64,000 bases of DNA from Gammaproteobacteria bacterium RIFCSPHIGHO2_12_FULL_63_22 (GCA_001801685.1 MGYJ01000031.1:7909-71908), one strand, 5' to 3'. Shown: positions 8,182-46,504, counted from the first letter of the stretch. Numbers and translations: made by a program. Notes: generated from the letters alone by a model not told the origin.

Positions 8182-8223
8182 CACCCTTCCGCTTGCGCCG
8201 AACGTCGGCGCGCCGAGAAAAGT

Positions 8224-28192: not shown

Positions 28193-28268
28193 GGGCCTAT
28201 AGCTCAATGGTTAGAGCGCGGGACTCATAATCCCTCGGTTCCAGGTTCGAGTCCTGGTGGGCCCACCA
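28193..28268 (+). tRNA. tRNA-Ile2 (anticodon CAT, lysidine type)
   Basis: 76-nt cloverleaf, loop CTCATAA, GGTTCGAGTCC T arm, encoded CCA; resembles ileX-type tRNAs more than Met tRNAs. Confidence 0.88.
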
Positions 28269-28269
28269 A
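28254..28269 (+). repeat. attL core of island
   Basis: CTGGTGGGCCCACCAA repeated exactly at 46489-46504. Confidence 0.9.
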
Positions 28270-28378
28270 ATCTAGGTATCCTGGGCGCGACTGGACATCA
28301 AGAAAGGCCTTAAATAAAGGAACATTGTTCCGCTAGGCCCAAGTCGTTGCTCTCCGGTGGTTTACGCTGAGCGCTTGA

Positions 28379-28432
28379 CATACCCCCAGCTTCGGGGAGC
28401 ATTCTGGGGGTACGGCGCCCCAGTGGGGGTAT
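28379..28432. repeat. Putative integrase arm-type sites, left end
   Basis: CATACCCCCA 28379-28388, CTGGGGGTAC 28404-28413, GTGGGGGTAT 28423-28432. Confidence 0.55.
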
Positions 28433-28447
28433 TTCAGGTTTAATTTT

Positions 28448-29692
28448 ATGCCCCTCTCGGATGCGGCCGTTCGCGGTGCTAGGCCAGCCGAAAAAACGTT
28501 CAAGCTTTCCGATGAGCGCGGAATGTTTTTGCTCGTGACTGCGGCCGGAGGCAAGCTCTGGCGCTTCAAGTACAGAATCCTGGGTAAAGAAAAACTACTC
28601 GCCTTGGGAGCCTATCCCGACGTGAGCCTTCGTGATGCGCGAGAGCGTCGAGATGAGGCGCGCAAACTCGTTGCCGCGGGAATCGATCCGAGCGAACGCA
28701 AGCAGATGCAGAAGCGGGCCGCGCTAAAGGCTGCGGGTGACACTTTTGAATCGATCTCCCGGGAATGGGTTGGCCGTCGTGGCAAGCATTGGACTGCTGC
28801 GCATGGCGCGCGCGAACTTCGTCGCCTCGAACGCGACCTGTTTCCATGGCTGGGAAAGCGCTCTATTTCCTCGATCGACGCCGCCGACTTGCTGGACGCG
28901 CTCCGGCGCGTCGAAGAGAGGGGTGCCATCGAGACAGCGCACCGACTACGCTCCCTGGCATCTCAGATATTTGCCTACGCAATCTCGACACGTCGCGCCT
29001 CGCGGAATCCTGCCGCTGACCTGACGGGCGACGCTCTGCAGCGGGCCACTCCCAAGCATCGAGCGGCCATTACAGACCCGGCCAAGATAGGAGGCCTCCT
29101 GCGGTCGTTTGATGCCTATGAGGGCACCTTTGTCACCAAGTCTGCGCTGCGCCTCGCGCCGCTGCTCTTCGTGCGGCCCGGCGAGCTGCGCCACGCCGAA
29201 TGGTCTGAGCTCGACCTAAGCAATGCCCTCTGGAGCATTCCGGCAGAAAAAATGAAGATGCGCCAAGCGCATGCGGTGCCCCTGAGTACTCAGGCAATAA
29301 CCATCCTGAGCGATCTCCAGGCGCTCACCGGCGGATCTCGTTACGCCTTTCCAAGTGCACGCAGTGACAAGCGGCCCATGAGCGACAACGCCGTTTTGTC
29401 GGCGCTCCGACGAATGGGGTACGCGAAAGATGAGATGAGCGGTCACGGATTCCGAGCGATGGCGCGCACCGTTCTGGACGAAGTGCTGCAATTTCGACCC
29501 GATTTCATCGAGCACCAGCTCGCCCATGCAGTCCGAGATCCCAATGGCCGGGCGTACAACCGCACAGCGCATTTGGCCGAGCGTAGAAAGATGATGCAGG
29601 CGTGGGCTGACTATCTCGACCAGCTCAAAACCGGTGGTGACGTGTTGCCTTTCCAGAAGAAGGGTGGCGAACGCCAGGAGGGGGCGAGGTAA
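28448..29692 (+). CDS. P4/CP4-57-type tyrosine integrase
   Basis: N-terminal arm-binding domain (LSDERGMFL, KLLALGAYP), VRPGELR, HGFR, QLAH, AYNR. Confidence 0.95.
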   Translation: MPLSDAAVRGARPAEKTFKLSDERGMFLLVTAAGGKLWRFKYRILGKEKLLALGAYPDVSLRDARERRDEARKLVAAGIDPSERKQMQKRAALKAAGDTFESISREWVGRRGKHWTAAHGARELRRLERDLFPWLGKRSISSIDAADLLDALRRVEERGAIETAHRLRSLASQIFAYAISTRRASRNPAADLTGDALQRATPKHRAAITDPAKIGGLLRSFDAYEGTFVTKSALRLAPLLFVRPGELRHAEWSELDLSNALWSIPAEKMKMRQAHAVPLSTQAITILSDLQALTGGSRYAFPSARSDKRPMSDNAVLSALRRMGYAKDEMSGHGFRAMARTVLDEVLQFRPDFIEHQLAHAVRDPNGRAYNRTAHLAERRKMMQAWADYLDQLKTGGDVLPFQKKGGERQEGAR

Positions 29693-30444
29693 TGGTCAAC
29701 GCCACATATGCAAGCACGGCACTACTTGATCGCGTACGCAGACTGCAGTCTTGCGTCGAAGCGGCCCTTTTGCAGGGGGAGCTGCGACGGCCGGATGAGG
29801 TCGAAACCGCCGTTGCTGCGATTGCCAAGTGGGTTTCGATGGGCGAAGCGAACATCGAGTTTTCGCTGACTTGTCACGATTTGTGGGGCGATCTATGGAT
29901 TGAATACGCTGGATGGATCGAAAGCGAAACTCCGCTGTCAGTCGCTCTCGGACTTCAGTCAAATCCGGAATGGGACTATCAGGAGATTTTCGCCGCTGTT
30001 GCGCTCATGTATGCACGTTGTGCGCTTAAACAGCTCGAGTTGAAGAGCCCCACGGGAACAGCTCTGGGGGCGATGGCGTACGCCGACGCGGTTGAGCATT
30101 TCGAACGCTGGAGAAGCGTGCGCGGCCAAGCAAGGTGCCGAAATCCTTGGGATAGGCTGGCAGAACTCAGCGAATGCGTTGATAAATTGACCGCCATTCC
30201 ATACATACACAAGGCGAAATCGGAGTCAGCAAGAAGAGCGGCCCTGGCTCTACACTCCCGCGATCCAAGGCAAGCTGCAAAAATGGAAATCCATGAAGAA
30301 TGGAAGCGTCGACGCGCCCTCGGCAGTGTGAAAGCGATGGCGTTTTCAGTGGAGATGCACCACAAGCATGGCGCCGTTTTGTCCGTTGGAACGATCAATA
30401 ATCTGCAAACCGGCTGGAACAAGACATTTCATCGTGCGCGCTAA
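29692..30444 (+). CDS. Hypothetical protein coupled to integrase
   Basis: 250-aa ORF whose ATG overlaps the integrase TAA. Confidence 0.65.
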   Translation: MVNATYASTALLDRVRRLQSCVEAALLQGELRRPDEVETAVAAIAKWVSMGEANIEFSLTCHDLWGDLWIEYAGWIESETPLSVALGLQSNPEWDYQEIFAAVALMYARCALKQLELKSPTGTALGAMAYADAVEHFERWRSVRGQARCRNPWDRLAELSECVDKLTAIPYIHKAKSESARRAALALHSRDPRQAAKMEIHEEWKRRRALGSVKAMAFSVEMHHKHGAVLSVGTINNLQTGWNKTFHRAR

Positions 30445-30522
30445 GTGACATTTTGCACGCAGCGTGATGCGACGCGATTCTGAGACTGTCTACTGACCTC
30501 CTACGCTAGCTGGGAGTTAACA

Positions 30523-30795
30523 GTGACCAACCGTCCGAACCAAAGTGCTTCTCAGGCCCGCGCCGCGAGAAATGTCGCGGCTGTGAACGCATCCGCCGCG
30601 CCTCGTCGTTTTCTGCGCATAGCCGACGTGCAGGCCTCGGTGGGGCTGAGTGCAGGAACTATCTACAAGCTGGTCAAGCGCGGTCAGTTTCCGCCGCCGG
30701 TGAAGCTCACTGCGCGGTCGAGCGCCTGGCTGGCCTCGGAACTCGATCAGTGGATTGAGAGCCGTGCTAGCGCTCGCCAGTTCAAAGCCAAGTAA
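30523..30795 (+). CDS. alpA: AlpA family regulator / recombination directionality factor
   Basis: RFLRIADVQASVGLSAGTIY, GQFPPPVKL, AWLASELDQWI. Confidence 0.92.
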   Translation: MTNRPNQSASQARAARNVAAVNASAAPRRFLRIADVQASVGLSAGTIYKLVKRGQFPPPVKLTARSSAWLASELDQWIESRASARQFKAK

Positions 30796-30962
30796 GCCCC
30801 GGCCCGACCATGAATCAGTTTTATTCCCGTTGTGGCTTCGCGGCGCCAAGTGCGCCGGTGAGTGACGCCTCCCCTCGTCGCATGGCACGGATGTCGCCGC
30901 TCCACTGGTTCGTTGCCGAATTGATGGAAATCTCCACGCGGCGCGGGAGCACGGGGTAGATC

Positions 30963-32207
30963 ATGGCTCTCAATGACCCTCTGCCCGGCCGCTCAGTGCT
31001 CGGTTTGCGTCGAGCCGACCAGATTGTGTCGCGGGCCACGCCTTGGCTCATCGATGGGTGGTTGGTCGAGGGGACGCTCGCCGGGCTAGTTGCACCAAGT
31101 TCAACATGCAAAAGCTTTCTCGCAATCGATTGGGCTTGCTGCATCGCAACTGGCACGCCCTGGAACGGGCACGCCGTGAAAAAGCGGGCTGTTTGCTACC
31201 TGGCTGGGGAAGGACTTCACGGTTTGCGCAAGCGAATCGCCGCCTGGGAGATCGCCAACGGCATTTCCATCAAAGACGCTCCGCTATACCTCAGTGCCAG
31301 CCTTCCGTTTCTCTGCAACGATCTGTCTGCCATTGCGAGTATTGACGAAATGAATGAGGTCACTCTTGCTGGCCCGGGATTGGTGATCATCGACACGGTC
31401 GCTCGTGCAATGGGCGGCGCGAACGAGAATAGCGCGGAGCATATGTCCGCCCTCATCCGCTCGATGGACTGGTTCAAGCAGGAGCTCGGTGCGACAGTAC
31501 TTTCAGTGCACCACACAGGCAACAACCCTTCGAATCAGACGCGCGCACGGGGAAGCAGCGCATACCGCGCCGCCCTGGACAGCGAGTTTCTCCTCAAGGC
31601 GGTTGGCGCCCACGAAATCGAGCTGTCCGTTAGCAAATCGAAGGATTGGAGCGCTGAAGCAGCCTTGCGGTTGCGCAAGGTTCTGGTCCCGATCGAGCTT
31701 GAGGGTCAAGACGAATCGAGCTTGGTGCTTCGCCTCGTCACGAGCATCAAGACCGAAAATGCAAGGCTTACGCAGGTGCTCGCGCTGCGTGCTCAGGGAC
31801 TGAGCATCAGAAAGATCGCAGATGAGTTGAAGTTGAATCGCAGCATGGTCGAACGGTTGCTAAAGCCACACGGGAAATCCGAAGGCGAGACAGTAGCGGT
31901 TGTCTCGTCTCGGCCCCCTTATACAGGGGGTGCCGATGAGACAGCGTCCCGCCGAGACACAACGGCCGAGACAGTCCGAGACGTTCGAGACGGCGCCGAC
32001 GAGCGTTGCCAGGGACCAAGGGCGGTTCATCCAGGCCAGCAGCTTGCCGAAGGGGGGCTCGTGAATGACCCTGTAATCGTTGCGCGCGTGCGCGCGCGTG
32101 AGGGCGACAATATCGGCCCCATCGTTTTCGAGCGCCCGCACACGGGTGCAGCAACCGCAGACGCGCACGCGCGCGCTTACGAAGGCCTCAACGATGGCAT
32201 CCCGTAA
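30963..32207 (+). CDS. AAA_25 / RepA-like helicase with C-terminal HTH
   Basis: WLIDGW, Walker A-like APSSTCKS, Walker B VIIDT, VHHTG, RGSSA, LSIRKIADEL HTH. Confidence 0.85.
   Translation: MALNDPLPGRSVLGLRRADQIVSRATPWLIDGWLVEGTLAGLVAPSSTCKSFLAIDWACCIATGTPWNGHAVKKRAVCYLAGEGLHGLRKRIAAWEIANGISIKDAPLYLSASLPFLCNDLSAIASIDEMNEVTLAGPGLVIIDTVARAMGGANENSAEHMSALIRSMDWFKQELGATVLSVHHTGNNPSNQTRARGSSAYRAALDSEFLLKAVGAHEIELSVSKSKDWSAEAALRLRKVLVPIELEGQDESSLVLRLVTSIKTENARLTQVLALRAQGLSIRKIADELKLNRSMVERLLKPHGKSEGETVAVVSSRPPYTGGADETASRRDTTAETVRDVRDGADERCQGPRAVHPGQQLAEGGLVNDPVIVARVRAREGDNIGPIVFERPHTGAATADAHARAYEGLNDGIP
31887..31991. repeat. GAGAC iteron-like array around a palindrome (putative origin)
   Basis: Six direct GAGAC, two inverted GTCTC, CCCCCT-TATAC-AGGGGG at 31914-31930. 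Confidence 0.6.
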
Positions 32208-32427
32208 CTCTTCCCGCGACGCCCTGAACCGCCACAAATCACGTATGTGCGCTGCAGGATTTAGACGGCTGAACGTTTGGTGCCATCCCGATCTCGTAGC
32301 GGCGTTGGCTCAACAACGTAAGCCGAAAGAGTGCACGGGCCGGACGATAGAACGCCTGATCTTGGGTGAAGCCCGCAAGCGCCCAGCTTTCAAGAAGGTG
32401 GGGCGCAAGCCCTTGCCCAGGCGATGA
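32194..32427 (+). CDS. Small basic DNA-binding protein (RHH/MazE-like)
   Basis: RHKSRMCAAGFRRLNVW resembles the DUF3018-type pattern; overlaps the helicase stop. Confidence 0.5.
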   Translation: MASRNSSRDALNRHKSRMCAAGFRRLNVWCHPDLVAALAQQRKPKECTGRTIERLILGEARKRPAFKKVGRKPLPRR

Positions 32428-32791
32428 CCCGGAATTGGCGTCCCCATCCGACTCCGTGGCCCGACCTGCTATTTGAGGTCGTTTTGGCCATCTCTGTTGC
32501 TGTCCTAGCCACCGAATGCCCTGCGTAGGCTCAGCAACGGAGAGGGTTCTGTTGGCTGGACCAGTCCGCATACCCCCAAATGCACCCCGGGCCGGAGCCG
32601 ATTCAACTCGACGCGTGGCCAGCGACCGCTACGGGAGCCGAGACGCTGGAGAACTTCCAACCAATCCGCCAAATGTTTGGCCGAGCATTCGCACGCGCAG
32701 TCCATGCGACTGGAGTTCGAAGCTCAGGGCCATCGCTACCGTTCTCCGCACCGCTGGTTGGTCAGATTGCGCCAGGCCGGTGGCCGCTGGG

Positions 32792-33160
32792 CTACTCGAT
32801 CCGCTCAAGTCCGGAAAAGGTGAACTCGACCGTGCCGATCCCGACCAGCGCGCCGGCCGTCAGCTCATTTCCCGTTTCGCCGTCCACCAGCGAAATCGTA
32901 GCGACATACGTTTCATGGCCTTTCTCTCGGTAGCCCTCGAACGCATCGAGCCATTCGTCCTGCGTAGTCTCATCTAGCTGACCAAACGTCTTGGTCGGAT
33001 TTACGCTTACGAAAACAACTGCCGATCTTCCGGCCTTGCTGAACCAGATTTGTGGGGCTGGGAGCCACCGATCGTCGATCGAATGAACCAACATTCCCTG
33101 TGTTGCCAATTGCTCGGCAACCAGCCTCAGACCTAGGGCGGTTGGTTCGGCGATGCTCAT
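32792..33160 (-). CDS. Hypothetical protein
   Basis: 122-aa globular-looking ORF divergent from the XRE gene. Confidence 0.6.
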   Translation of the reverse strand: MSIAEPTALGLRLVAEQLATQGMLVHSIDDRWLPAPQIWFSKAGRSAVVFVSVNPTKTFGQLDETTQDEWLDAFEGYREKGHETYVATISLVDGETGNELTAGALVGIGTVEFTFSGLERIE

Positions 33161-33179
33161 GACTCAGTGGCCATATTAG

Positions 33180-33209
33180 AAATTCGTATATAGCAAATTC
33201 CTATATAGC
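33180..33209. promoter_or_regulatory. Tandem 15-bp repeat, putative XRE operator
   Basis: AAATTCGTATATAGC / AAATTCCTATATAGC, 14/15 identical, between divergent genes. Confidence 0.55.
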
Positions 33210-33237
33210 TTAAAGACCGCTTCGGAGACAAGCGGTC

Positions 33238-33522
33238 ATGCCAAAACCGATCCACCGCCCCGAATACCAACTTGTCAGAGACCTTTTACGGGATTTCAGG
33301 GTCGAGGCGGGGGTCAAGCAGGCCGAGCTCTCAGAGGCGCTGGGCAAGCCACAGCCCTATATCAGCGCGATCGAGACCGGACACCGTCGCGTGGACTTGA
33401 TTGAGGTGCGCGATATCTGTGGGGTGTTGGGCATCTCGCTCTCCAATTTTGTCTTAGCGCTGGAGAAGGGGATTCGGCGCCCAGTCAAGAAGGATAGGGC
33501 TAGCCGCTCTCGAGTTACTTAG
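33238..33522 (+). CDS. XRE family HTH regulator
   Basis: RVEAGVKQAELSEALGKPQPYISAIETG. Confidence 0.92.
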   Translation: MPKPIHRPEYQLVRDLLRDFRVEAGVKQAELSEALGKPQPYISAIETGHRRVDLIEVRDICGVLGISLSNFVLALEKGIRRPVKKDRASRSRVT

Positions 33523-33702
33523 CGATGGATCTGCCAGGGCTGACGCGAACGTGTGCACTCCCAGTATCCGGCGTCATTGTCGGCACGAGGCTCACGGCGA
33601 ATTTCCCTTCGCCACGGCTGTAAGTGGCCCCAAGCTCCGGACTGTCGTGTTTAATTGCGCAATCTTTCGTAAACTTCTCCGTGCGGCGCGGAGAAAGCGA
33701 AC

Positions 33703-34182
33703 GTGAATGTCATTTTGGTCACTTGCTATGCAGCGGTCGTTGGAACTTTGGCCTTGGGTTGGCAGATCGTCTCCTGGCGAAAGTCTCGTCGACCGGACGT
33801 CGTAGTGTCCGCAAGATTAGCCGCCGACCGGGACGGGGAGGGTGTGATCGTGAGGGTGCTTACTGGTTCGGACGTCACGATCGTACGCGCCGGAGTTACG
33901 CCCAAGAATTGGGGCTGGCAACGATATTGGAACGAGATTTCAGTTCGATCTTGGGAGCTAGGCGATCAAACTTTCGGCAGCCAAGACTGCGGACTTCCGC
34001 TAAACGTGCGATCCTCTGAACGCTTGGTGGTCTGGTTTTCGAAGGTAGAACTGGCGTCTTCCGGAATTGGATACCGCGATGGAAAGCACTACGTCGCGTG
34101 GGTCGAAACGTCCCGCGGAACTCGGCACAAGTCCAACGGCTTCGGCGGGGATCGCAATTCCCAATGGCAGACGTTTTCGTGA
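33703..34182 (+). CDS. Hypothetical protein with N-terminal membrane anchor
   Basis: Hydrophobic first ~22 aa then beta-rich soluble domain. Confidence 0.55.
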   Translation: MNVILVTCYAAVVGTLALGWQIVSWRKSRRPDVVVSARLAADRDGEGVIVRVLTGSDVTIVRAGVTPKNWGWQRYWNEISVRSWELGDQTFGSQDCGLPLNVRSSERLVVWFSKVELASSGIGYRDGKHYVAWVETSRGTRHKSNGFGGDRNSQWQTFS

Positions 34183-34463
34183 GCGCGTCAAATCGCGCTT
34201 CGACAAAGGAGCTCCGGCTTGACTGTCACTAACCCCGTCTTGCGAATGGCAACTTTCGACCCAAAATGGACATCTCCCACGTTGTTGATGCCCTCCGTCC
34301 GGCCCACGCTCCCAGTAGTTTGGCTCAGTTGTGCGTTCGCTTTCTTGCGGGCACGTACAGTCCCCGTTGAGGTTTTCCACGACCGACATCGACGCGATGG
34401 GTTGTTCCAGGTGCCTAACTCGATGCCAAGCCCCCAGATATCTACGAGAGCGTGGGCGCACCC

Positions 34464-36218
34464 CTAGGCGCGCGCCCGTTCAAAGCCATCCCATCGAGCA
34501 AAAGTGGGATCATCGCGAAGGGTGAGGTCTGAAGCCAGGACGCTGTCGAGTACGCGTCTTAGATCATCGAAGACCCAGAACTGAGCATTCGGGGATAGGA
34601 ACGCATCCATAAGTCTCAGCGCTGACCGAGGCTGCGCGTTCACATGTTGCGAGTCGGCCAGCTCTCGGAGCAGGAATTCGTTCTCGCCCGGGCGGATGAA
34701 CTGTAAGACCGTCGCGACGGCATCTTCGAATGCTCCGTTCGTCGCAAGCGCCATCTCCACCCATGGGCGGGCTTCCTTTGCGCTCCTAATCTGCGGGTCG
34801 CGGGGCCAGAACTTCTGGATCCAAGGCTTTACCTTTTCAGCCCACACCGCGTCCGGATCAACCGTGTGGTCGTCCGCACGCCTAAGCGCACTTACGACCC
34901 AGTCCAGCATGCCTGCGCGCGTCTCCGAACTCATCCGGCGGATCGCGCCCTGTGTGGCTTGGCGCGGCAAATCGTCGAGTCCGATGTGGAGCCCAGCGGC
35001 AGCCAAGGCTTGGGCCAGAGGGCCAACGGTCTCGCCCAGCTGATGGATCCGATCCGCTTGAAAGCAGTCGAGGAAGTCGGTCTTGATCTCGTTCCATAGC
35101 AGTGGATCGAGGTGAGGCTGCCAACCGAAGCCCTGCCAGACTGCGAGCGCTTCGGTCTCGTCACGCTCCCACCGGAAATAGGGTAGCAAATGCAAACGCG
35201 TGAGGTCGGGATCGATCGCGAAGAGATATGAAAGGCGCGAGGCGAAGACGACACGGGCGGGACGATGGCGAGCCTCTCCGGCGCCGACTAGGCGAACAAA
35301 GCGCTCCGTCAGCTCCGCGGGGATGCCTCCACCCACTACCAGGCGCCTTGCGAACAAAGCGTTGAGAAAGGCGAGCGCTAGGTTCCCCATGGACGTGTTG
35401 ATGGCAACAGCAGCCCAGTCGTGATCATCAGGACGGCGCGAATTGGTATCGTCCAGAGCAACCCCTGGCACCACTTTGTCAAACGCTCGCCAGAAGTCCT
35501 CTGTCGACATTTCTCGAAACTGCGCGGAGGATGCCGCGGACTCCAATAGGTAAGCAGCCGCAGAGGAAACACTGGGATCATGTGCCAGCACGTCGTCCAA
35601 TGCAGCGACCAACAAAAGCACATCTTCGCCAGGCGTGGGCGTCGCGGCCTTGGTTCGGAGACCCCAGAGCGTCGCAGTCCAGAGTTCGGCGTCGGGCCCT
35701 GTCCGGTCCGCCACGTCGCGGAGCACCGACATCATCTTCTCCCAATCACTCGCCACCATCTCCCGCCAGCCGTTCAGCGTACCTTCTCGTTGATCTGCGG
35801 ATAGTTCTTCGACAATCTCGGCTGGAGTCATCGCTTGCAGGCGGCGCTTGTCGTCCACAGCCTCTAAGGCGCGCCATCCCGACTGGCTGTAAAACGAGAA
35901 GTGTGCCTGCTCGCCCGGAGCGACATCCCACTTGGGATAGCGCACCCGCAAGCGGGCAAGCTCCGCCTCCATCGCCGCATGTGGCCGCTCGGGATCCAAC
36001 CGTTGCATGATCCGTAGCCGCTCGAATACGCGCCGCGCGCGGAGCTGATCGCGTTCAGCCTCGGGCAGGTGGTCAGACATCCATGCGGGTGGTCCCGCCG
36101 CGATCTTCTCGACCAAGGCGTTACGGGCGTCCTCTTCCAGCTGTGGCCACAGCGCAACCAAGAGGTCATAGACCTCCTTCCTCGCCGAGATATCCCAGAG
36201 TGCGGGCACGTTAGCCAT
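34464..36218 (-). CDS. C-terminal half of Dsr1-like defence-associated sirtuin
   Basis: 584 aa from ATG 36218; helical Trp-rich segments (LWDISARKEV, AINTSMG, VWQGFGW, KPWIQKFWP) recall the Dsr1 C-terminus. Confidence 0.75.
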   Translation of the reverse strand: MANVPALWDISARKEVYDLLVALWPQLEEDARNALVEKIAAGPPAWMSDHLPEAERDQLRARRVFERLRIMQRLDPERPHAAMEAELARLRVRYPKWDVAPGEQAHFSFYSQSGWRALEAVDDKRRLQAMTPAEIVEELSADQREGTLNGWREMVASDWEKMMSVLRDVADRTGPDAELWTATLWGLRTKAATPTPGEDVLLLVAALDDVLAHDPSVSSAAAYLLESAASSAQFREMSTEDFWRAFDKVVPGVALDDTNSRRPDDHDWAAVAINTSMGNLALAFLNALFARRLVVGGGIPAELTERFVRLVGAGEARHRPARVVFASRLSYLFAIDPDLTRLHLLPYFRWERDETEALAVWQGFGWQPHLDPLLWNEIKTDFLDCFQADRIHQLGETVGPLAQALAAAGLHIGLDDLPRQATQGAIRRMSSETRAGMLDWVVSALRRADDHTVDPDAVWAEKVKPWIQKFWPRDPQIRSAKEARPWVEMALATNGAFEDAVATVLQFIRPGENEFLLRELADSQHVNAQPRSALRLMDAFLSPNAQFWVFDDLRRVLDSVLASDLTLRDDPTFARWDGFERARA

Positions 36219-38259: not shown

Positions 38260-38534
38260 TTCCACCCTCCTGTCGTGTCGAAGTACATCTTAGGACGGCA
38301 ACCAGGTCGTCGGGCTGCACCTTCTGGCCCTCAGAAGACATTGATTGAGAGCGGTACACGCCAAGAAAGGGACTCGGGAGCTCACCTAGCACCCGAATTG
38401 GGTGCCTAGGGTGCCGTCATAATGGGGATATTAGTTAGAAGCAATTCCCTCATACCCCCAATAACGTCCCCGGCAACGGACCGATTGGCCTCATCGACGA
38501 AAAGCCGCTTCCTGACAAAGGCTAGACCGGTGCC

Positions 38535-40973
38535 TCAAGCCTGGGGTTGACGCTGGTAAAGGTATTTTTGGAACCCGGCGAAGAGCCGGCCGATTTCTTC
38601 GGCCTTCCCCAGATCCTCCAAGGCATCACGAATTGAGTCGTTGTACTTGAGCTTCAGCAACGGAGTGAGTTTCTCCTGGTCAAGCTCCTGAACGCCCACA
38701 TTGACGTAGTGGGATAGCACAAACTCTAGGAACGCCTGCTGCTTGTCATTGCATTGTTTAGTGATAGCCGCCTTGGCCTTCGCTGCGCGTTCCTCCCGGC
38801 TGATCGGTGGCAGTGCATAGGCCACGTTGGCCAGAACATCAAAGAGGTCGCTCTTCTGCGCGTCAATTAGCTTCTGCATCTCCTCCAACTGGTCATTGGC
38901 AAAGCCTTTCTCAGCCAGAGCTTGGAGAAGTTTCTTACGAGTGTCCGGCATGCTCCACAAGGTACGCAGCTCATCCTCGTCCTTGAAGAACTCCGGCAGC
39001 GTGCCGAATAGGCTTTCCAGGAACTGGGCGGCAGACATGGGCTTGCCGTCGGCACTCCAGAAGGTCGTGGCCACCATGCTTTGAATGTGGCGGGCCTTGC
39101 CGTCTGCCAGTTTCACGAGGACCTTCTTCTTGCATACACAAGGGTCTTCGCCGCATTTTTCGCAGGGTGGCCGTTCGCATTCACAGGGCGACTTGCCGCA
39201 TTTCTCACAATGTTTCGGCTCGCAAGTGCATGGCGACTGATTGCAAACCCGGCACGGCTCCGGTGGCGTCTCTTCGCAGGTGCATGGGTAGTTGCCGCAC
39301 TTCTTGCAATCCTCCGGCGGAAGCGGCTCGCCATCCCACTCCGGATCGTTGAAGTGCTCGTGGGCCTTCACGAAATCGTAGACGGTGAAATAGTCCTTGC
39401 CGTCGTAGAGCCGTGTGCCCCGGCCGATGATCTGCTTGAACTCGATCATCGAGTTGATCGGCCGCATCAGGACGATGTTACGGATGTTCCTAGCATCAAC
39501 TCCCGTCGACAGCTTTTGTGAGGTCGTCAAGATGGTTGGGATCGACTTGTCGTTGTCCTGGAAGTCACGCAGGTGCTGGTCGCCCCTGGCCCCGTCGTCA
39601 GCCGTGACCCGCACGCAGTAGTCAGGATCGGTGCTGGTCTTCGTCTGGTTGATCAGGTCGCGCACCATTAGCGCGTGTTCCTGAGTTGCGCAGAAAACCA
39701 GCGTCTTCTCGCGCTGGTCGATCAAGTCCATGAAGAGTTTGATGCGATGTGCTTCGCGCTCCCGGATCACGATGACGCGATTGAAGTCGCCCTCGGTGTA
39801 GCGTTTTCCTTGCACCACCTCGCCTTCCACAACTGCATCGTCCGGAGTGTAGGTGTAGTCATCAATGGTTGTGGCGAACTGTCTGACTTTGAACGGGGAC
39901 AGGAAGCCATCGTTGATTCCTTCCTTCAGCGAGTAGCTGTAAACAGGCTCTCCAAAGTAGGCATAGGTGTCGACGTTGTTCCTACGCTTGGGTGTGGCTG
40001 TCAGACCCAGCTGCACAGCTGGCTTGAAGTAATCGAGGATGGCCCGCCAGTTGCTCTCGTCCCTGGCACCGCCCCGGTGGCACTCGTCAATGACGATGAA
40101 GTCAAAGAAGTCCGCTGGGTAGTCACCAAAATAGGGGGTATCCCCGGGGCCACTCATGAAGGTCTGGAAGATCGTGAAGAAGACGCTCCCATTCTTCGGC
40201 ACGCGGCCCTTCTTGCGAATCTCATCGGGGGCAATTCGCACAAGAGACCCCGGAGCCTTGTCCTCGAACGGAGTGAAGGCGTTGTAAGCCTGATCGGCCA
40301 GGATGTTTCGATCGGCCAGGAACAGAATGCGGGGCCGGCGGGTCGGTTCTCCCGGCCGCTTCCAGTCGTCTAGGTTCCACCGACTGTAGAACAGCTTCCA
40401 GGCTAGCTGGAAGGCGATAAAGGTCTTGCCGGTGCCTGTTGCGAGGGTCAGCAGGATACGGTCCTTGCCGGCCGCTATGGCGGCCAGGACGCGGTCAATG
40501 GCGATGTCCTGGTAGTAGCGGCTCTGCCAAGTGCCGCCGTGGTCCTCGAAGGGCACCTGGACAAAGCGGTCGCGCCAGGCGTTCGTCTCGGCGAAGGTCC
40601 GCGCCCACAGTTCCTCCGGCCCCGGGAAGGCTGAGACATCGCCCTCGGTGCCCGTGGCCATGTCGATGCCGTAGATCTTCTTGCCATTGGTCGCGTAGGT
40701 GAAGCGCACGGCCAGCTTGGCGGCGTAGCTTTTAGCTTGCCCTACGCCCTCGGTATAGGGCTTGTCCCATGCCTTGGCCTCGATCACGGCCAGCTTGGTG
40801 TTCCGGTAGATCAGCACATAGTCGGCAATCTCTGGCGTCGCCCTTTTCCCGCCCCCCTGCAGTCGCCCCGGCGTTATGTGCTCCCGGCGGATTCGACTCC
40901 CTTCAACCACGCCCCAGCCGGCCGCCTTGAGGGCGGGATCAATGTGCTCGGCGCGGGTCTCGGCTTCGTTCAT
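38535..40973 (-). CDS. hsdR: Type I restriction enzyme R subunit (EcoEI-like)
   Basis: IEAK nuclease motif, ATGTGKT, IDECHRG, QIIGRGTR. Confidence 0.93.
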   Translation of the reverse strand: MNEAETRAEHIDPALKAAGWGVVEGSRIRREHITPGRLQGGGKRATPEIADYVLIYRNTKLAVIEAKAWDKPYTEGVGQAKSYAAKLAVRFTYATNGKKIYGIDMATGTEGDVSAFPGPEELWARTFAETNAWRDRFVQVPFEDHGGTWQSRYYQDIAIDRVLAAIAAGKDRILLTLATGTGKTFIAFQLAWKLFYSRWNLDDWKRPGEPTRRPRILFLADRNILADQAYNAFTPFEDKAPGSLVRIAPDEIRKKGRVPKNGSVFFTIFQTFMSGPGDTPYFGDYPADFFDFIVIDECHRGGARDESNWRAILDYFKPAVQLGLTATPKRRNNVDTYAYFGEPVYSYSLKEGINDGFLSPFKVRQFATTIDDYTYTPDDAVVEGEVVQGKRYTEGDFNRVIVIREREAHRIKLFMDLIDQREKTLVFCATQEHALMVRDLINQTKTSTDPDYCVRVTADDGARGDQHLRDFQDNDKSIPTILTTSQKLSTGVDARNIRNIVLMRPINSMIEFKQIIGRGTRLYDGKDYFTVYDFVKAHEHFNDPEWDGEPLPPEDCKKCGNYPCTCEETPPEPCRVCNQSPCTCEPKHCEKCGKSPCECERPPCEKCGEDPCVCKKKVLVKLADGKARHIQSMVATTFWSADGKPMSAAQFLESLFGTLPEFFKDEDELRTLWSMPDTRKKLLQALAEKGFANDQLEEMQKLIDAQKSDLFDVLANVAYALPPISREERAAKAKAAITKQCNDKQQAFLEFVLSHYVNVGVQELDQEKLTPLLKLKYNDSIRDALEDLGKAEEIGRLFAGFQKYLYQRQPQA

Positions 40974-41098
40974 GGAGGAATCCTACAACTACCCGGTGCG
41001 GTCTTGGTGCAGCAGGACCCATTCAATGCCTCCGGCGGCACTAGCTTCTGCCGGTTGACGAGGAAGGGGCGTTCGTTTCGAACCCTCACTCTGGTGAA

Positions 41099-41440
41099 CT
41101 ACCCCTCGGCTTGCTTGCGCTCGGCAACTGTCCGTCTACGCCATTCTTGGATGAAACCAACAAACTCCTGGATTAGGATTTCCCGCATCTCGTCTTCATC
41201 CATGCCGAACTCTGTGGGCAACGGGAAATAGTCACTGGCAGCAGCGGCGATGTAGTCAGCCGCAAGGTCTGTGGCCGAGTCCCGATCATCGGCACCGAAC
41301 AAGAGTTCCTCGGAGGTGGAAATGTGGCTATCGAGCCAAACGCCCGGATCGCCGAGGTTGTCTAACTCTACAAATTGCTGGCCGGGCCAGTCGCTCGGCC
41401 AGTGGGCAATGATCGGCTCTGCGGGTTCGTCGTTGCTCAT
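41099..41440 (-). CDS. Acidic hypothetical protein between hsdS and hsdR
   Basis: 113-aa ORF with ATGA overlap on the hsdS stop. Confidence 0.65.
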   Translation of the reverse strand: MSNDEPAEPIIAHWPSDWPGQQFVELDNLGDPGVWLDSHISTSEELLFGADDRDSATDLAADYIAAAASDYFPLPTEFGMDEDEMREILIQEFVGFIQEWRRRTVAERKQAEG

Positions 41441-42615
41441 AGCTCCCCACTGAAAGCTTGGCGCAGCAGCGACTTCTTCAACGCTTGCAGCGCGGCGATC
41501 TTACGCTCGTAGAGTCGGGCGAGGCGTTGGGTTTCATGGTGGAGGTCATCAAGGTTCGCGGCGAGTTGCTTTTGCTTCTTCACGTCGGGAAGCAAAACCC
41601 GAAACTCGAACAAGTGGTCGCGATTGACTTTCGGCATTCCCGCCCGGGCAGAACCTCGGATTGCGTAATCCGTGAAGGGTTTACTCAGCAACAAGTGAAA
41701 GAGGTAGTCGCGAGTAACTACGCTGGGGATTGGCGCGAGCGGATACATGTCTGCGCTGCACAATCCCTCGAAGTCTGGGCGAGCAACCTTCATCAGATAA
41801 GGGCGAATCTTGCTGTACAGCACCATTGATTCGTCGAAGAGGAACTTGCCGGAAATCAGGCCTTCTTCTCGTGCCGTCTTGAGGTCTACGAACACGCCGG
41901 TCTTTGATTCGATGTTACCCGCGCCGACGTGGGTCAAATCGAGGAACTCTTTTTTCCGTGGGTCAACGAGCGTTGAAGTAATCGCGCAGACTTCGTCGAA
42001 TCGCTTCTCCACCCACCCCGGGCCGCGCTGGGTGAAGACGGATTGGAGGCGGCTTTCGAAGATTCCGCGGACGTTTTGGAGGTTCTTTTCGGCATTGGCT
42101 TTGGCGGTGGCGATGCCCTCAAACGCTTCGTCGAGCAGGCCGACAATCCGCTGCTGTTCTGCCAGCGGGGGGGCGGGAATCGTGAGAGCCCCAAGCTTCG
42201 TCGCATTGAATCCGCCTTGTGCACTACCAGATGAACCGTCTTTGATCGACTGCCAGTAGCCAGCGGTTTGGAAGAACAGCATGACGAACTCCGGCAGCAA
42301 CTTCTTGTCGAGCAAGCGGAGCCGAATCAGATACGAAGCGAACACTGCTTCGGGCGGCTCGTCCACGAGGAAGCTCTTGCCAGTCGTTGCTCCGGTGCGC
42401 GCAAAAACAATGTCACCGCTGGCCAGCCGGTATTTGGGAATATCGGCGCTTTCGATCTTGCAGTAAGGCACAGTGTCCCATTCAACACGGTCGTCCTGGA
42501 TGTCCGTGATGCGGAGAAAACGCGGGCCGACTAGTTCTCTGGTCGCGCTTTCGGTGTAGCCGTAGTTGATGGCCGACACCGCTCCGAGCTCTTTAGTTTC
42601 CCAACCCTTCTTCAT
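41437..42615 (-). CDS. hsdS: Type I restriction-modification specificity subunit
   Basis: Two TRDs with conserved PPLAEQQRIV and KKSLLRQAFSGEL segments. Confidence 0.93.
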   Translation of the reverse strand: MKKGWETKELGAVSAINYGYTESATRELVGPRFLRITDIQDDRVEWDTVPYCKIESADIPKYRLASGDIVFARTGATTGKSFLVDEPPEAVFASYLIRLRLLDKKLLPEFVMLFFQTAGYWQSIKDGSSGSAQGGFNATKLGALTIPAPPLAEQQRIVGLLDEAFEGIATAKANAEKNLQNVRGIFESRLQSVFTQRGPGWVEKRFDEVCAITSTLVDPRKKEFLDLTHVGAGNIESKTGVFVDLKTAREEGLISGKFLFDESMVLYSKIRPYLMKVARPDFEGLCSADMYPLAPIPSVVTRDYLFHLLLSKPFTDYAIRGSARAGMPKVNRDHLFEFRVLLPDVKKQKQLAANLDDLHHETQRLARLYERKIAALQALKKSLLRQAFSGEL

Positions 42616-44069
42616 AGCAGCGCCTTGATGTTGCCCAGCACTTCCGCGCTCTCGGCGTCCAGCGCGGCGATTTCGTCCATGATGTCTTGCGGGCTGCGGT
42701 GCGCGATTTCCTCGCCACCGTTGGGGTTCTTCACGGACAAATCAAAGCTCTTCGGATCGATGGCCGCCACGTCCACGCTCCAGCTTTTGGGCGAGTCGAC
42801 TTTGGTCTTTTGCAGTGCGATGAACTCGGCGAGGTCGGCGTCGTTGAGCGGGTTGGTCTTGCCCATGTTGCGGCCGGGGTCGAGCTGGTAGAACCACACC
42901 TTTCGGGTCTTTGTGCCCTTATCGAAGAACAGTACTACGGTCTTCACGCCCGCGCCGATAAACGTTCCGCCGGGGCAGTCGAGTACCGTGTGCAGGTTGC
43001 AGCTTTCCAGGAGCAGCTTGCGCAGGCTGACCGAGGCGTTGTCGGTGTTCGACAGGAAAGTATTCTTAATGACGATGCCGCCGCGCCCGCCGGCCTTGAG
43101 AATCTTTATGAAGTGCTGCAGGAACAGGAACGCGGTTTCGCCGGTGCGTATGGGGAAGTTCTGCTGTACCTGCTTGTGTTCGTTGCCGCCAAAGGGCGGA
43201 TTGGCCAGAACCACGTCATATCGATGTTTTTCCTGGATGTCGGCGAGGTTCTCCGAAAGCGTATTGGTGTGGAGGATATTGGGCGCCTCGATGCCATGCA
43301 GGATCATGTTCATGATCGCGATGACGTAGGCAAGCGACTTTTTCTCCTTCCCGTAGAACGTCTTCTCCTGGAGAAACCGGTCCTGGGCGACCGTGCGCTT
43401 GGGATGGGTTCTCTTCAGGTAGTCGAATGCCTCGCACAAGAAGCCCGCAGAGCCGACCGCCCCGTCATAGATGCGCTCCCCTAGCTGGGGCCGTGTGACC
43501 TCGATAATGGCGCGGATAAGCGGGCGTGGCGTGTAGTACTCGCCGCCGTTCCGCCCGGCGTTGCCCATGTTCTTGATCTTCGCTTCGTACAGGTGCGATA
43601 GCTCGTGCTTCTCAACCTGGGAGCGGAAGCGGAGTTCGTCGACATGCTCGATTACCTCCCGCATGTTGTAGCCGCTGGAGATCCGGTTCTTGATCTCGCC
43701 GAAGATCTCGCCGATCTTGTACTCAGTCGTATTGGTGCCGCTTGCTCGTTGCTTGAACCCGTGCAGATAGGGGAAGAGCTTGTTGTTGACGAAGTCCCGC
43801 AGGTCATCCCCTGTCAGCGCCTTGTTGTGGTCCAGCTTGCCGTCCTTGCCCTTGGGGGCGGCCCACGCCTCCCAGCGGTATGGCTTGTCCAGGATGTAGC
43901 TGTACTTCTTCCCCTCCAGCTTGGCCTGGTCGAATAGGTCCTGCTCTAGGCCGTCAAGGTACTTGAGAAACAGCAGCCAAGACGTCTGTTCGGTGTAGTC
44001 CAGTTCTGTGGTGCAACCGGCTTCCTTCCATAGGACGTCATCGATGTTCTTGAAGGTCTGTTCAAACAC
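42612..44069 (-). CDS. hsdM: Type I restriction-modification N6-adenine methyltransferase
   Basis: GEYYTPR, DGAVGSAGFL, ANPPF. Confidence 0.95.
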   Translation of the reverse strand: MFEQTFKNIDDVLWKEAGCTTELDYTEQTSWLLFLKYLDGLEQDLFDQAKLEGKKYSYILDKPYRWEAWAAPKGKDGKLDHNKALTGDDLRDFVNNKLFPYLHGFKQRASGTNTTEYKIGEIFGEIKNRISSGYNMREVIEHVDELRFRSQVEKHELSHLYEAKIKNMGNAGRNGGEYYTPRPLIRAIIEVTRPQLGERIYDGAVGSAGFLCEAFDYLKRTHPKRTVAQDRFLQEKTFYGKEKKSLAYVIAIMNMILHGIEAPNILHTNTLSENLADIQEKHRYDVVLANPPFGGNEHKQVQQNFPIRTGETAFLFLQHFIKILKAGGRGGIVIKNTFLSNTDNASVSLRKLLLESCNLHTVLDCPGGTFIGAGVKTVVLFFDKGTKTRKVWFYQLDPGRNMGKTNPLNDADLAEFIALQKTKVDSPKSWSVDVAAIDPKSFDLSVKNPNGGEEIAHRSPQDIMDEIAALDAESAEVLGNIKALL

Positions 44070-44157
44070 CGGGATTGATCCTTAATGCGAGTAGTGCAGC
44101 TATTTGAGCATCAAGACAGCCTACGTGAAACCGGGCGAGAGCTGGCCATTGGCGACG

Positions 44158-44430
44158 TCACCGGTTCTCTGGACGAACGCCACGGCCAGGAGCCGATCGC
44201 TGCGGGACGGTGGGTGCGACGAATGGGGGCCGTGCCCCCGGCGCATGGAATGGTCTGACCCAATTCAGAAGCACAAGGCCGACCCGGATCTGACCGACGC
44301 GGATGAATTCATGCGTGCCGATGTGCTCGGCAGGGCTGGAGGTGCGCGTAACCGATCGCTTTCCGTTGGCCAGCGTCAGCACGACCTTGGTGCCGACTGA
44401 GTGCTGCGCGTTCCATTCGTTCGACGTCAT
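44158..44430 (-). CDS. Small phage-like hypothetical protein
   Basis: WNAQHSVGTKV..TRTSSPA resembles small phage proteins from memory; 3' part of the longer track ORF. Confidence 0.4.
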   Translation of the reverse strand: MTSNEWNAQHSVGTKVVLTLANGKRSVTRTSSPAEHIGTHEFIRVGQIRVGLVLLNWVRPFHAPGARPPFVAPTVPQRSAPGRGVRPENR

Positions 44431-44886
44431 AGCTTCAGTCTGGCGACCGCCCTTCCAGTATCCTGAAACTCGGAGAAGGAGACGTATCGATGCCATCGGA
44501 CCACCAGCCAAAGCAATGGACGCTCGAGCAGTCGGCAGAGATCGCCGACCACTGGCAAAAGCTGCTCGACGCGGCCGACGCCGGCGACGAGCGCGCCAGG
44601 GACTTCCTAGGGACCTTTGGGCCCTGGGCGAGCGCGCAGTTGGCGAAGCGGCGAAAGTCGTGACAGCGATGGGAAAGCCGCCGACCTTGCCATCTGGCGG
44701 CCAGTGCTGAGCGAACATCGCCGCACTGCTACAAAATTGGGCGCCGCCTTGAGCAAGTGGCCAGCGGGGCCGGGGTGGGTGCCGTGGAACATTTTTGTTC
44801 CACGGAATAAGGGGCTTCGAGTGGTGTAACGTGCTTGCCAAGCTGAATCCCTGCCGGCCGGCGGGGTATATGCGACTAGGGTTTAG

Positions 44887-44916
44887 TTGCAATGTCAGGT
44901 GCTGAGCTAATACGAT
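44887..44916 (+). promoter_or_regulatory. Possible sigma70 promoter of the hicA operon
   Basis: TTGCAA, 18-nt spacer, TACGAT, 13 nt before ATG 44930. Confidence 0.35.
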
Positions 44917-44929
44917 GGGCCATTGATTG

Positions 44930-45199
44930 ATGTCCAGCCGACTAAAAAAGAATCTCTTCAGACTCGAGGCGTGCCCAAAGGACTACACCTGGAACGAACT
45001 GACCGCGGTGATGCGTGGGCTGGGCTTTGTCGAAGCGAAGGGTTCAGGCGGATCGGCGGTCAAGTTCCGGCATCCGGATCATCCCGAGCAAGTGGTCAAT
45101 TTGCACAAGCCACACAACCGAAATCCGCCGACTGTATTGGTCGTTTACTTGAGAAAGCTGGTGGCGAGGCTGAAAGAATGGGGGTATCTGGATGCCTAA
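44930..45199 (+). CDS. hicA: HicA family mRNA interferase toxin
   Basis: WNEL..LGF, GS.VKF, LHKPH; 89 aa. Confidence 0.88.
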   Translation: MSSRLKKNLFRLEACPKDYTWNELTAVMRGLGFVEAKGSGGSAVKFRHPDHPEQVVNLHKPHNRNPPTVLVVYLRKLVARLKEWGYLDA

Positions 45200-45665
45200 T
45201 ATGTTGAACTACAACAACTACACCGCAACAGTTGAGTTTTCCGAGGAAGACGCGCTGCTTGTCGGGCAGCTAAATAACGTCGACGCACTGGTGGTTTTCT
45301 CGGCGGATAATGTCGCGGATCTAATCACCGAGTTTCACGCCGCTGTTGACACTTACCTGGCAGATTGCGCTGAGGCTGGCATCGATCCTGAAAAGCCCTA
45401 TAAGGGCTCCTTCAACGTTCGCGTCGGCGTGGAACGGCACCGCCGCGCGGCGTGCACAGCTGCTCGCTGGAGCGTTTCGCTCAACGAGTTCGTGGGGATC
45501 GCAATTGACCAGGCTGTTGATCGAAATGATCGTGGCGGGACGGTTACGCTTGTCAAGGAAAAGATATACGCCGGCGACCTCTCGGAACAGGGCTTCGAAT
45601 CCATTCGCGTGGTCGATGATGCAGTGGGTTCGATCTATGCAGCTGCGCCGTATACACGGCAATGA
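45192..45665 (+). CDS. hicB: HicB family antitoxin with ~45-aa C-terminal extension
   Basis: YNNYTATVEFS, FHAAVDTYLADC, PEKPYKGSFNVRV, SLNEFV. Confidence 0.9.
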   Translation: MPNMLNYNNYTATVEFSEEDALLVGQLNNVDALVVFSADNVADLITEFHAAVDTYLADCAEAGIDPEKPYKGSFNVRVGVERHRRAACTAARWSVSLNEFVGIAIDQAVDRNDRGGTVTLVKEKIYAGDLSEQGFESIRVVDDAVGSIYAAAPYTRQ

Positions 45666-46186
45666 CCACCGATCTCTTGGCGTTTCGCCTGATCAACGCT
45701 CGCATCAGCAAGCTCGTTGTCGATGAGCGTGCCGGGGGTGTGCTCGTCGTCGGGAAGGAACTCGATGTGGTGATCTCCCGATCCTTGCCAGAGGTGTCCG
45801 TTCACCCTTGGGGAACTCGTCCGGTTATCGAGCTGAGGGTTTCGGCCTCGGCAACGCTAAGCGGAACTGGCGAGCGAACTATGCTCGACAAGGTGTTCCA
45901 TGTTGAGTGCACGGGCGCATTCGTGTCTGCCGGTGGGAAATCTGACGGAAAGTTGGACGCGTTTCAGCCCATGGTTGAAGCTTTTTCGCGGTCCCTTTAT
46001 TGGATACTGCGCGAGCGTCTGGATTCCGTTTTTGCTGTGACGGCGCTCCGGTCTGCGAATCTCCCGTGGGACTTACCGGAGATTGGTCATCGTCTCGCTG
46101 ATACAGGGCCTCAACCGCCGCCAGCCGCGACGAAGAGGGCGCCAGTGCCCCGCAAGAAGCTGCCACGAAAGCGATCGGAGAGCTAG
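45662..46186 (+). CDS. SecB-like chaperone
   Basis: Four alternating beta strands ending VECTGAF, then helix SLYWILRERL and ANLPWDLP, the SecB-like pattern; ATGA overlap with hicB. Confidence 0.7.
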   Translation: MTTDLLAFRLINARISKLVVDERAGGVLVVGKELDVVISRSLPEVSVHPWGTRPVIELRVSASATLSGTGERTMLDKVFHVECTGAFVSAGGKSDGKLDAFQPMVEAFSRSLYWILRERLDSVFAVTALRSANLPWDLPEIGHRLADTGPQPPPAATKRAPVPRKKLPRKRSES

Positions 46187-46189
46187 CGA

Positions 46190-46402
46190 ATGGCGGGCGA
46201 GCCAAAAGCGTTTGTGCTCTATTTGGATGGTGCAGGAGAGTGGCGCTGGCGACTGTTTGCGCCCAATGCAAAAGTCATCGCCGACAGTGCGGAAGGTTAT
46301 CGAGACCGGGCCGATGCCATTCACGGGATACATTTGGTCGCCCAGATTGCGCCGGACACGAACATCTGGGATCCCGCTCAGAAGAAATGGGTTGTGGGCT
46401 AA
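46190..46402 (+). CDS. YegP / DUF1508 family protein
   Basis: FVLYLDGAGEWRWRLFAPNAKVIADSAEGY; GGAG RBS inside the secB-like 3' end. Confidence 0.88.
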   Translation: MAGEPKAFVLYLDGAGEWRWRLFAPNAKVIADSAEGYRDRADAIHGIHLVAQIAPDTNIWDPAQKKWVVG

Positions 46403-46405
46403 CCG

Positions 46406-46427
46406 CTGGGGGCATCTCTGGGGGTAG
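46406..46427. repeat. Putative integrase arm-type sites, right end
   Basis: CTGGGGGCAT 46406-46415 and CTGGGGGTAG 46418-46427. Confidence 0.55.
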
Positions 46428-46488
46428 CCAGGTCGACCGGCCGCCCAAGACCCGCGCAGATTGCCCCTCGGACACGACTATTCGGGGG

Positions 46489-46504
46489 CTGGTGGGCCCA
46501 CCAA
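46489..46504 (+). repeat. attR core (duplicated tRNA 3' end)
   Basis: Identical to 28254-28269. Confidence 0.9.

Follow-up and report, generated by a model that had tools for sequence, protein, structure and literature searches.

What kind of mobile element occupies the low-GC region inserted in a tRNA gene of Gammaproteobacteria bacterium RIFCSPHIGHO2_12_FULL_63_22, a Pseudoxanthomonas-like bacterium, and are its parts still in working order? The region lies in a 64,000-nucleotide stretch of this genome (MGYJ01000031.1:7909-71908; referred to here as the window, to which positions refer unless stated otherwise) and forms an island of 18.25 kb between two 16 bp repeats, the first of which overlaps the 3' end of a probable tRNA-Ile2 gene. 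An earlier reading of the DNA alone, referred to as the original prediction, had described a capsid-less, satellite-like island that stacks three defence layers, and every item that it listed is present where it had been placed. We favor, with somewhat better than even confidence, an integrative element at tRNA-Ile2 that combines a backbone of the phage-satellite type with about 12 kb of defence and addiction cargo. The sequence supports the presence of intact integration, excision and replication modules, and of three intact cargo modules: a two-gene Dsr1 system, a type I restriction-modification (RM) system, and a hicA-hicB-secB-like toxin-antitoxin-chaperone (TAC) operon.

The boundaries of the island are real, as judged from the repeat, the base composition, and the points at which homology to a relative breaks off. 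The exact 16-mer CTGGTGGGCCCACCAA forms the attL core at 28254-28269, where it takes in the last 15 bases of the tRNA and one more, and recurs as the attR core at 46489-46504 within a 27-nt stretch that repeats the tRNA 3' end at 85% identity (23 of the 27 positions of this longer repeat match). The exact att repeat of the original prediction is thereby confirmed; the 16-mer has two occurrences in the whole 4.26-Mb assembly, both of them these att sites, where about 1.3e-5 copies are expected per 20 kb. A second, unrelated exact 16-mer repeat is present in the same 20 kb, so it is the position of the att repeat rather than its length that carries weight. Between the repeats the GC content is 0.56-0.63, as against 0.64-0.69 beyond them. 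In the closest relative found (genome G010), whose flanks are 82-87% identical to those of the island-bearing genome (G000) at the nucleotide level, the match to the left flank stops at 28269, and that to the right flank restarts at 46509. The predicted attB junction reads from the tRNA 3' end ...CTGGTGGGCCCACCAA into TTCGAACTCGC, and the predicted attP junction from ...GGGGGCTGGTGGGCCCACCAA into ATCTAGGTATCC.

The integration target is a tRNA(CAU) gene at 28193-28268 on the plus strand, the sole tRNA that ARAGORN reports within the window (as tRNA(CAT)); Rfam concurs, the tRNA being its one match. There are six CAT tRNAs in the genome, among them a typical elongator Met tRNA (contig C77), an initiator-like one (C61), and the island-bearing one with C4-G69 and C5-G68 pairs. 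We take these two pairs to be TilS identity determinants, and the target is thus plausibly a tRNA-Ile2 of the lysidine type. The other three tRNA(CAT) genes have unusual sequences, lie on contigs C57, C91 and C96, and may be phage-borne or on contaminating contigs (the stated contamination of the genome is 2.97%).

The island recurs in identical form in three metagenome assemblies of this population; the source metagenomes are those of ERZ28563591 and SRR2090157. G010 lacks it at tRNA-Ile2. This tRNA also has matches in ten further relatives among those sampled, seven from the same genus, and no island gene lies within 1.5 kb on either side of these matches. A Logan contig of the same population begins 13 nt before the att core, which we do not count as evidence of excision because a tRNA common to strains breaks assemblies anyway.

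The integrase, AlpA and helicase that had been placed in the first ~4.3 kb are all recovered by domain matches. The int gene (28448-29692, plus strand) encodes a P4-type tyrosine integrase with Arm-DNA-bind_3, Phage_int_M and Phage_integrase domains (NF007246, 1.7e-77), and is 69% identical at the nucleotide level to the integrase gene of the temperate Stenotrophomonas phage S1; at the protein level it is 53% and 47% identical to the integrases of two of the related islands described below (L143 and L036, respectively). The next gene, orf250 (29692-30444, plus strand), overlaps the int stop codon by 1 nt (TAATG) with GGAGG upstream, and its product is predicted to be all-helical. It has no Pfam, PHROG, NCBIfam or PADLOC match and no homologue among 5.8 billion proteins, and its single-sequence AlphaFold2 (AF2) model, with a pLDDT of 48.5, is unusable. 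The alpA gene (30523-30795, plus strand) encodes an AlpA-family excisionase or regulator (PF05930, 4.2e-16; phrog_2790 and phrog_66, annotated as excisionase and regulator), and rep (30963-32207, plus strand) encodes an AAA_25 RecA-type helicase-like ATPase (PF13481, 2.9e-37) with a C-terminal helix-turn-helix (HTH) at residues 268-301. Against phrog_906 the Rep match covers positions 518-752 of 872, which is the helicase part only of these phage primase-helicases; a PDB sequence search with Rep gave nothing useful. The frames of int, alpA and rep are open over their full length and their domain matches are complete, and there is no second copy of int or rep in the genome. A scan for sigma-70 promoters returned no sites.

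Immediately after the conserved part of rep is a candidate replication origin (31887-31991), with eight CGAGAC(A) iterons, six direct and two inverted, that read (C/T)GAGAC(A/G). The GAGAC core is scarce in the window (59 sites, with ~121 expected), and yet eight fall within these 105 bp, where 0.097 are expected (Poisson P = 2e-13). Rep itself is conserved only to about 31877 (homology to its relatives ends at 31859-31877), the open reading frame (ORF) then continuing through the origin, and the first iteron lies ~10 nt past the end of the conserved coding part. All six homologous islands have 4-10 short iterons (6-7 nt) within ~130 bp after rep, with a sequence that differs from island to island: GGGACA, TGGACCA, GCCGGAC, AACCGGA, CGGACA/GTCCGA, and CGTTACA. 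Conservation of the position together with divergence of the sequence is as expected of a cognate initiator-origin pair. The origin remains a prediction, but it is well supported, and the candidate named originally is strengthened by these homologous clusters. We also note GC-rich palindromic repeats, GCGCGCGTGCGCG and CGCGCACGCGCGC (13 nt, 100% complementary), at 32076-32181, some 100-190 bp past the iterons, where the rep ORF is no longer conserved.

The relatives of Rep are informative as to where this backbone comes from. At class level 10 of 400 sampled genomes have a Rep homologue, and at family level 18 of 400; a peptide-pattern search of the genome contigs found no close Rep relatives, and those described here came from the genome homology search. 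The Rep relatives that we fetched belong to 7-10-kb islands beside tRNA genes, four of them bounded by direct repeats of 20-47 bp, and these islands have in common only int, rep, and sometimes alpA. Two contain capsid genes: L141 (G533:C1:726000-745999; 2532-12740), a ~10 kb island at tRNA-Ser with a 45 bp repeat, encodes an integrase, Rep and an HK97-type major capsid protein, and L142 (G493:C2:561000-580999; 1015-11015), also ~10 kb, at tRNA-Val with a 46 bp repeat, encodes an integrase, Rep, a Gp13-like capsid protein, the large terminase subunit TerL, and a tail-assembly-like protein. Among the Rep relatives, these two are the closest (44-50% identity). Portal and tail genes are missing from both, apart from the tail-assembly-like gene of L142; by their gene content they are not phages, and look like reduced capsid-forming satellites of Lysobacteraceae. 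L145, of the same genus as the island-bearing genome (G803:C1:449000-468999; 3160-10478), is a 7.3 kb island at tRNA-Phe with a 47 bp repeat, and contains int, a gene for a 133-residue protein that overlaps int by 1 nt, an HTH_17 gene before rep, rep, iterons, and three unassigned genes. L149 (9 kb) is at tRNA-Leu with a 20 bp repeat and an AlpA gene before rep, L143 is a low-GC region of ~7 kb at tRNA-Thr, and L036 is at tRNA-Leu; a direct repeat was not found for either of the last two. Rep domain matches occur in 934 phage records and 21 plasmid records, the plasmid collection being three times the larger, which corresponds to a ~140-fold greater density per base in phage. The capsid-carrying kin of Rep and this phage-rich distribution indicate that the backbone is of the phage-satellite type by descent, and the satellite reading gains circumstantial support from the relatives of the island. 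A further island may be present at L148 (G803:C1:1255000-1274999), where two tRNA-Ser(TGA) copies 17.4 kb apart flank another rep homologue.

Beyond the backbone, the cargo includes a Dsr1 system in an unusual two-gene form. The dsr1N gene (36211-38265, minus strand) encodes the 684-residue SIR2 (NADase) half (PF13289, 2e-21; NF041818 positions 2-695), and dsr1C (34464-36218, minus strand) the 584-residue C-terminal half (NF041818 positions 693-1260; PDLC04167 positions 670-1234). The dsr1C ATG is situated 5 nt before the dsr1N stop codon (ATGGCTAA), giving an 8-nt overlap with GGAG 10 nt upstream. Relative to Dsr1 as defined in NF041818 and PADLOC, the domain order, the full profile coverage and the SIR2 N/D/H residues are alike, but here there are two coupled genes instead of a single protein of ~1250 residues, and the halves score 409.9 and 240.9 bits, below the 1400-bit equivalog cut-off of NF041818. 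A frameshifted pseudogene was considered and rejected. A full HMMER search of 1.84 billion representatives recovered several proteins of 42-47% identity, together with one of 35%, that terminate at precisely the residue at which dsr1N does, as well as fused forms of ~1235-1283 residues, and the SIR2 residues N124, D126 and H166 are invariant in split and fused relatives. Among 17 genome loci (L039-L055, 44-91% identity) the stop position of the N-terminal half is the same in all, and the ATG of the C-terminal half is 5 nt before the stop in 16; the junction follows the pattern ATGnnTRR, and most loci have the upstream GGAG. Conservation of this junction shows the split to be natural, an old and conserved two-gene form rather than damage. 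The split clade includes Stenotrophomonas beteli, Pseudoxanthomonas and Lysobacteraceae metagenome-assembled genomes (MAGs), Rhizobium, Mesorhizobium, Sphingobium, Maritimibacter, Seohaeicola, and a Planctomycetota MAG, and more distant homologues (31-33% identity) are single ORFs. The Dsr1-like module proposed originally is therefore present with full profile coverage (2-1260), although as two natural genes and not as a single one. The 3.8-kb Dsr1 cassette alone is common to the island and S. beteli LMG 978 (79% nucleotide identity), which indicates that the cassette moves independently of the island. The two-gene form also leaves the NADase half and the presumed sensor half open to study as separate proteins.

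The type I RM module is complete, as had been proposed, with hsdR, hsdM and hsdS all present at full length and end-to-end matches to the PADLOC profiles REase_I, MTase_I and Specificity_I. All three genes are on the minus strand: hsdM, the methyltransferase subunit, at 42612-44069 (PDLC03021, 3.4e-162, full length; PF02384), hsdS, the specificity subunit, at 41437-42615 (PDLC03194, 3.7e-90, full length), and hsdR, the restriction subunit, at 38535-40973 (PDLC03049, 1.3e-139, residues 1-781 of 812, with an EcoEI_R_C end). Between hsdS and hsdR is orf113 (41099-41440, minus strand), which overlaps hsdS by 4 nt, encodes a strongly acidic protein without a Pfam, PADLOC, NCBIfam or PHROG match, and may serve the RM operon in an accessory or regulatory capacity. 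In HsdR, the helicase core is separated from the EcoEI-type C-terminal domain by a Cys-rich insert (39132-39308), in which CxxC...PCxC units recur.

The third module, at the right end of the island, has the gene order of a TAC operon, and all of its genes are on the plus strand. The hicA toxin gene (44927-45199) is recognized narrowly by PF07927 (28.7 bits against a cut-off of 27), and a HicA homologue that is 66% identical occupies the same operon position in another locus (L021). The GGSAVKF stretch of HicA may lack the His that usually follows GS, although the alignment with E. coli HicA is too poor to judge the catalytic His, and we draw no claim from it. The hicB antitoxin gene (45192-45665; PF05534, 3.2e-17) overlaps hicA by 8 nt and encodes a protein of ~157 residues, with ~48 residues past the ribbon-helix-helix (RHH) motif that form a candidate chaperone-addiction tail; the L021 homologue is 121 residues long and tail-less. 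The chaperone gene, orf174 (45662-46186), overlaps hicB by 4 nt and encodes 174 residues with a predicted SecB fold. It has no sequence-level match in Pfam (including SecB), PADLOC, NCBIfam, PHROGs or PDB, and PDB sequence searches with HicB and with a chaperone profile gave nothing useful. Its AF2 model, at a pLDDT of 67, has four long beta-strands and one short one followed by a long helix, and the top 16 PDB matches in Foldseek are without exception SecB or Rv1957, the TAC chaperone of M. tuberculosis (E 3.8e-5 to 6e-3, TM score 0.41-0.59). On this model, which is of moderate quality, orf174 encodes a SecB-fold chaperone. Its only relatives (45-56% identity), in two other contigs, also follow hicA-hicB, and in one of these, a metagenome contig, a DUF1508 gene comes next, as it does here: a DUF1508 (YegP-like) gene (46190-46402; PF07411, 5.8e-13) directly follows orf174.

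By architecture and predicted fold, hicA-hicB-orf174 is a HicAB-type TAC, and the TAC-like module of the original prediction is borne out both in its toxin-antitoxin-SecB-like gene order and in the predicted SecB fold. The same order and fold are seen in the Methylomonas methanica system (Mmet-TAC; PMC5105189) and in M. tuberculosis HigBA1-SecB(TA) (PDB 5mtw). The HicB lengths are also alike, Mmet-HicB having 159 residues with a chaperone-addiction (ChAD) region at 119-159 (PMC5105189), and both proteins have a C-terminal extension. In contrast to the known TACs, the chaperone here is without a Pfam SecB or PDB sequence match and has a basic, disordered tail of ~45 residues, and a DUF1508 gene is next to it. 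The hicAB-secB-DUF1508 operon thus adds to the small set of HicAB-type TAC systems. To regard it as an abortive-infection or phage-defence system is speculation. The original interpretation of a satellite-like island with stacked defences is partly supported, by the integrative nature of the island, the intactness of its modules, and its satellite-type kin.

How closely, then, does the island resemble the satellites that have been described? Capsid, terminase, relaxase and type IV secretion system (T4SS) genes have no Pfam, PHROGs or PADLOC match anywhere in the island, in agreement with the earlier statement that no capsid, terminase or conjugation genes were recognized, and tblastn with the genes of the relatives finds no capsid or terminase remnant. 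With P4-like satellites the island has in common a P4-type integrase at a tRNA, AlpA, a helicase-type replication protein and defence cargo, but it is without psu, delta, sid and epsilon (Pfam, PHROGs) and without the primase domain of P4 alpha, and its host belongs to another clade. With phage-inducible chromosomal islands (PICIs) and their capsid-forming variants (cfPICIs; PMC10085698) it has in common the int-alpA-rep order, an origin beside rep, and chromosomal integration, and its Rep relatives L141 and L142 carry a capsid protein, and one of them TerL, as cfPICIs do; the island itself, however, is without terS, ppi, rpp, capsid morphogenesis, capsid, portal, head-tail adaptor/connector and terminase genes. 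The closest layout is that of the PICMIs of Vibrionaceae (minimalist islands in the chromosome that are phage-inducible), a proven satellite family without capsid-remodelling or packaging genes, in which int is followed by iolg, which overlaps int by 1, 4 or 13 nt and is needed for excision, and then by alpA and a replication gene (PMC10803314). The island has the same arrangement, with orf250 at the iolg position, and likewise has no packaging genes, a short direct repeat (17 bp in PICMIs, 16 bp here) and defence cargo. It differs in that the PICMI replication gene is a DUF3987/DUF5906 primase whereas Rep here is of the AAA_25 plus HTH type without a primase domain, and in that PICMIs are located downstream of fis and the island in tRNA-Ile2. 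PICMIs also measure ~6 kb, against 18 kb here, of which 12 kb are cargo; they belong to a different host family, and they are proven satellites, whereas helper dependence is presumptive for the island. Unlike integrative and conjugative or mobilizable elements (ICEs and IMEs), the island has no ORF with a relaxase, type IV coupling protein (T4CP) or T4SS Pfam domain.

Several observations count against the satellite interpretation. The island departs from each formal satellite model (P4-like, PICI Type A/B, cfPICI, PICMI) in at least one defining feature, and no packaging signal, terS, or capsid-redirecting or other phage-interference gene was found in it. It has three PICI components only (int, alpA and rep), which SatelliteFinder would rate as Type C, as opposed to at least four of five in Types A and B, and its authors deem such int-alpA-rep clusters unreliable and possibly other mobile elements (PMC10085698). 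Rep is without a primase domain (Pfam, PHROGs), orf250 is an ORFan, and the att core of 16 bp is short compared to the 45-47 bp of three related islands. The comparison of the tRNA locus in relatives, proposed originally as a check, bears out that the island is absent from G010 and from the vicinity of the ten other matches, but gives no clean empty site: none of the relatives searched has both flanks adjoining, only G010 retains the left flank, and in G010 each flank is on a contig of its own, adjoining unrelated DNA (at least 4.5 kb and at least 10 kb) that G000 lacks.

These observations bear on two other explanations. The island could be an integrative, self-replicating element that is not a satellite, akin to a plasmid or an 'integrative replicating' island, and moved by conjugative mobilization through an unrecognized oriT, by transformation, vesicles or generalized transduction, its satellite likeness then reflecting a common phage-derived int/rep toolkit. 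The lack of packaging and capsid-interference genes is in keeping with this, as is the lack of recognizable virion genes in the related islands L143, L145 and L149; modules of Rep and iterons are also typical of plasmids, 21 plasmid records having homologues, and the caution that int-alpA-rep clusters may be other mobile elements comes from the SatelliteFinder authors themselves (PMC10085698). We nonetheless think it unlikely, since there is no recognizable relaxase, T4CP or T4SS domain with which to mobilize, Rep homologues are so much denser in phage than in plasmid records, capsid and terminase genes accompany the closest Rep relatives, and PICMIs, as proven satellites, have the same minimal int-iolg-alpA-rep layout and no packaging genes (PMC10803314). 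An explanation that we consider distinctly improbable is that a former satellite or island has lost its packaging module and is kept by the host as a fixed, immobile defence island. Decay would fit with the short att core (16 bp exact, or 23 of 27 positions) relative to those of 45-47 bp, with a size of 18 kb that is about twice that of the 7-10-kb relatives, with the absence of any virion gene or remnant of one, and with a gene-poor stretch of 0.85 kb (44070-44926), but int, alpA and rep are not degraded, the iteron array is intact, and the island was not found in other sampled genomes of the genus, which points to a recent gain and not to long residence.

The satellite-type interpretation that we prefer would have the P4-type integrase recombine the 16 bp core at tRNA-Ile2, with orf250 translationally coupled to int and AlpA acting as excisionase or activator. 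Rep would serve as an AAA_25 helicase-type initiator whose C-terminal HTH may bind the eight CGAGAC(A) iterons, such that the island would be excised and the circle replicated. The two Dsr1 halves, coupled through their 8-nt overlap, would be expected to deplete NAD+ upon infection by way of the SIR2 NADase, and the TAC operon with DUF1508 probably stabilizes the island and possibly adds to defence. Transfer between cells would presumably take place inside helper-phage particles, the packaging module having either been lost or never been present. In the same genome, on contig C91 (3871-7030), a Phage_portal gene adjoins an HK97 Phage_capsid gene, and the atypical tRNA(CAT) of that contig is at 41790; we regard this prophage-like element as a possible helper. 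A bolder proposal, which we offer tentatively as possible but on the whole doubtful, is that the island belongs, as a functional element, to a hitherto undescribed Rep-iteron satellite family in Lysobacteraceae, ranging from 10-kb capsid-encoding forms, one with a terminase, to minimal and cargo-laden capsid-less forms. In the island itself, defence systems would have come to fill the space after the origin, and packaging would still be by a helper phage. Were this so, the Rep-iteron family would extend the 'minimalist satellite' lifestyle of PICMIs to another bacterial family and another replication protein.

That satellites and tRNA islands can carry defence systems is already in the literature. 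The island adds a well-built instance of such an element without constituting a new kind, and its features overturn no current views. It is a clean example of a small phage-derived int-alpA-rep-ori chassis that carries stacked anti-phage systems, and the link between a capsid-less island and capsid-encoding relatives offers a concrete, testable path that satellites could take towards becoming defence islands.

The remaining parts of the island are less readily assigned. The 0.85 kb between hsdM and hicA (44070-44926) have no convincing gene, the two ORFs present, an Arg/Pro-rich one of 244 residues and one of 98 residues, being without a match, and this stretch may be a junction between cargo cassettes. 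Between rep and dsr1C, an XRE-family HTH regulator is encoded at 33238-33522 (plus strand; PF01381, 1.3e-12), and its weak, control-protein-like matches (HTH_VI) are the only further PADLOC matches among the small island ORFs. It is followed by orf159 (33703-34182, plus strand) and preceded by the divergent orf122 (32792-33160, minus strand), both without a Pfam, NCBIfam, PHROG or PADLOC match, and the codon-position GC of orf122 fits that of a coding sequence.

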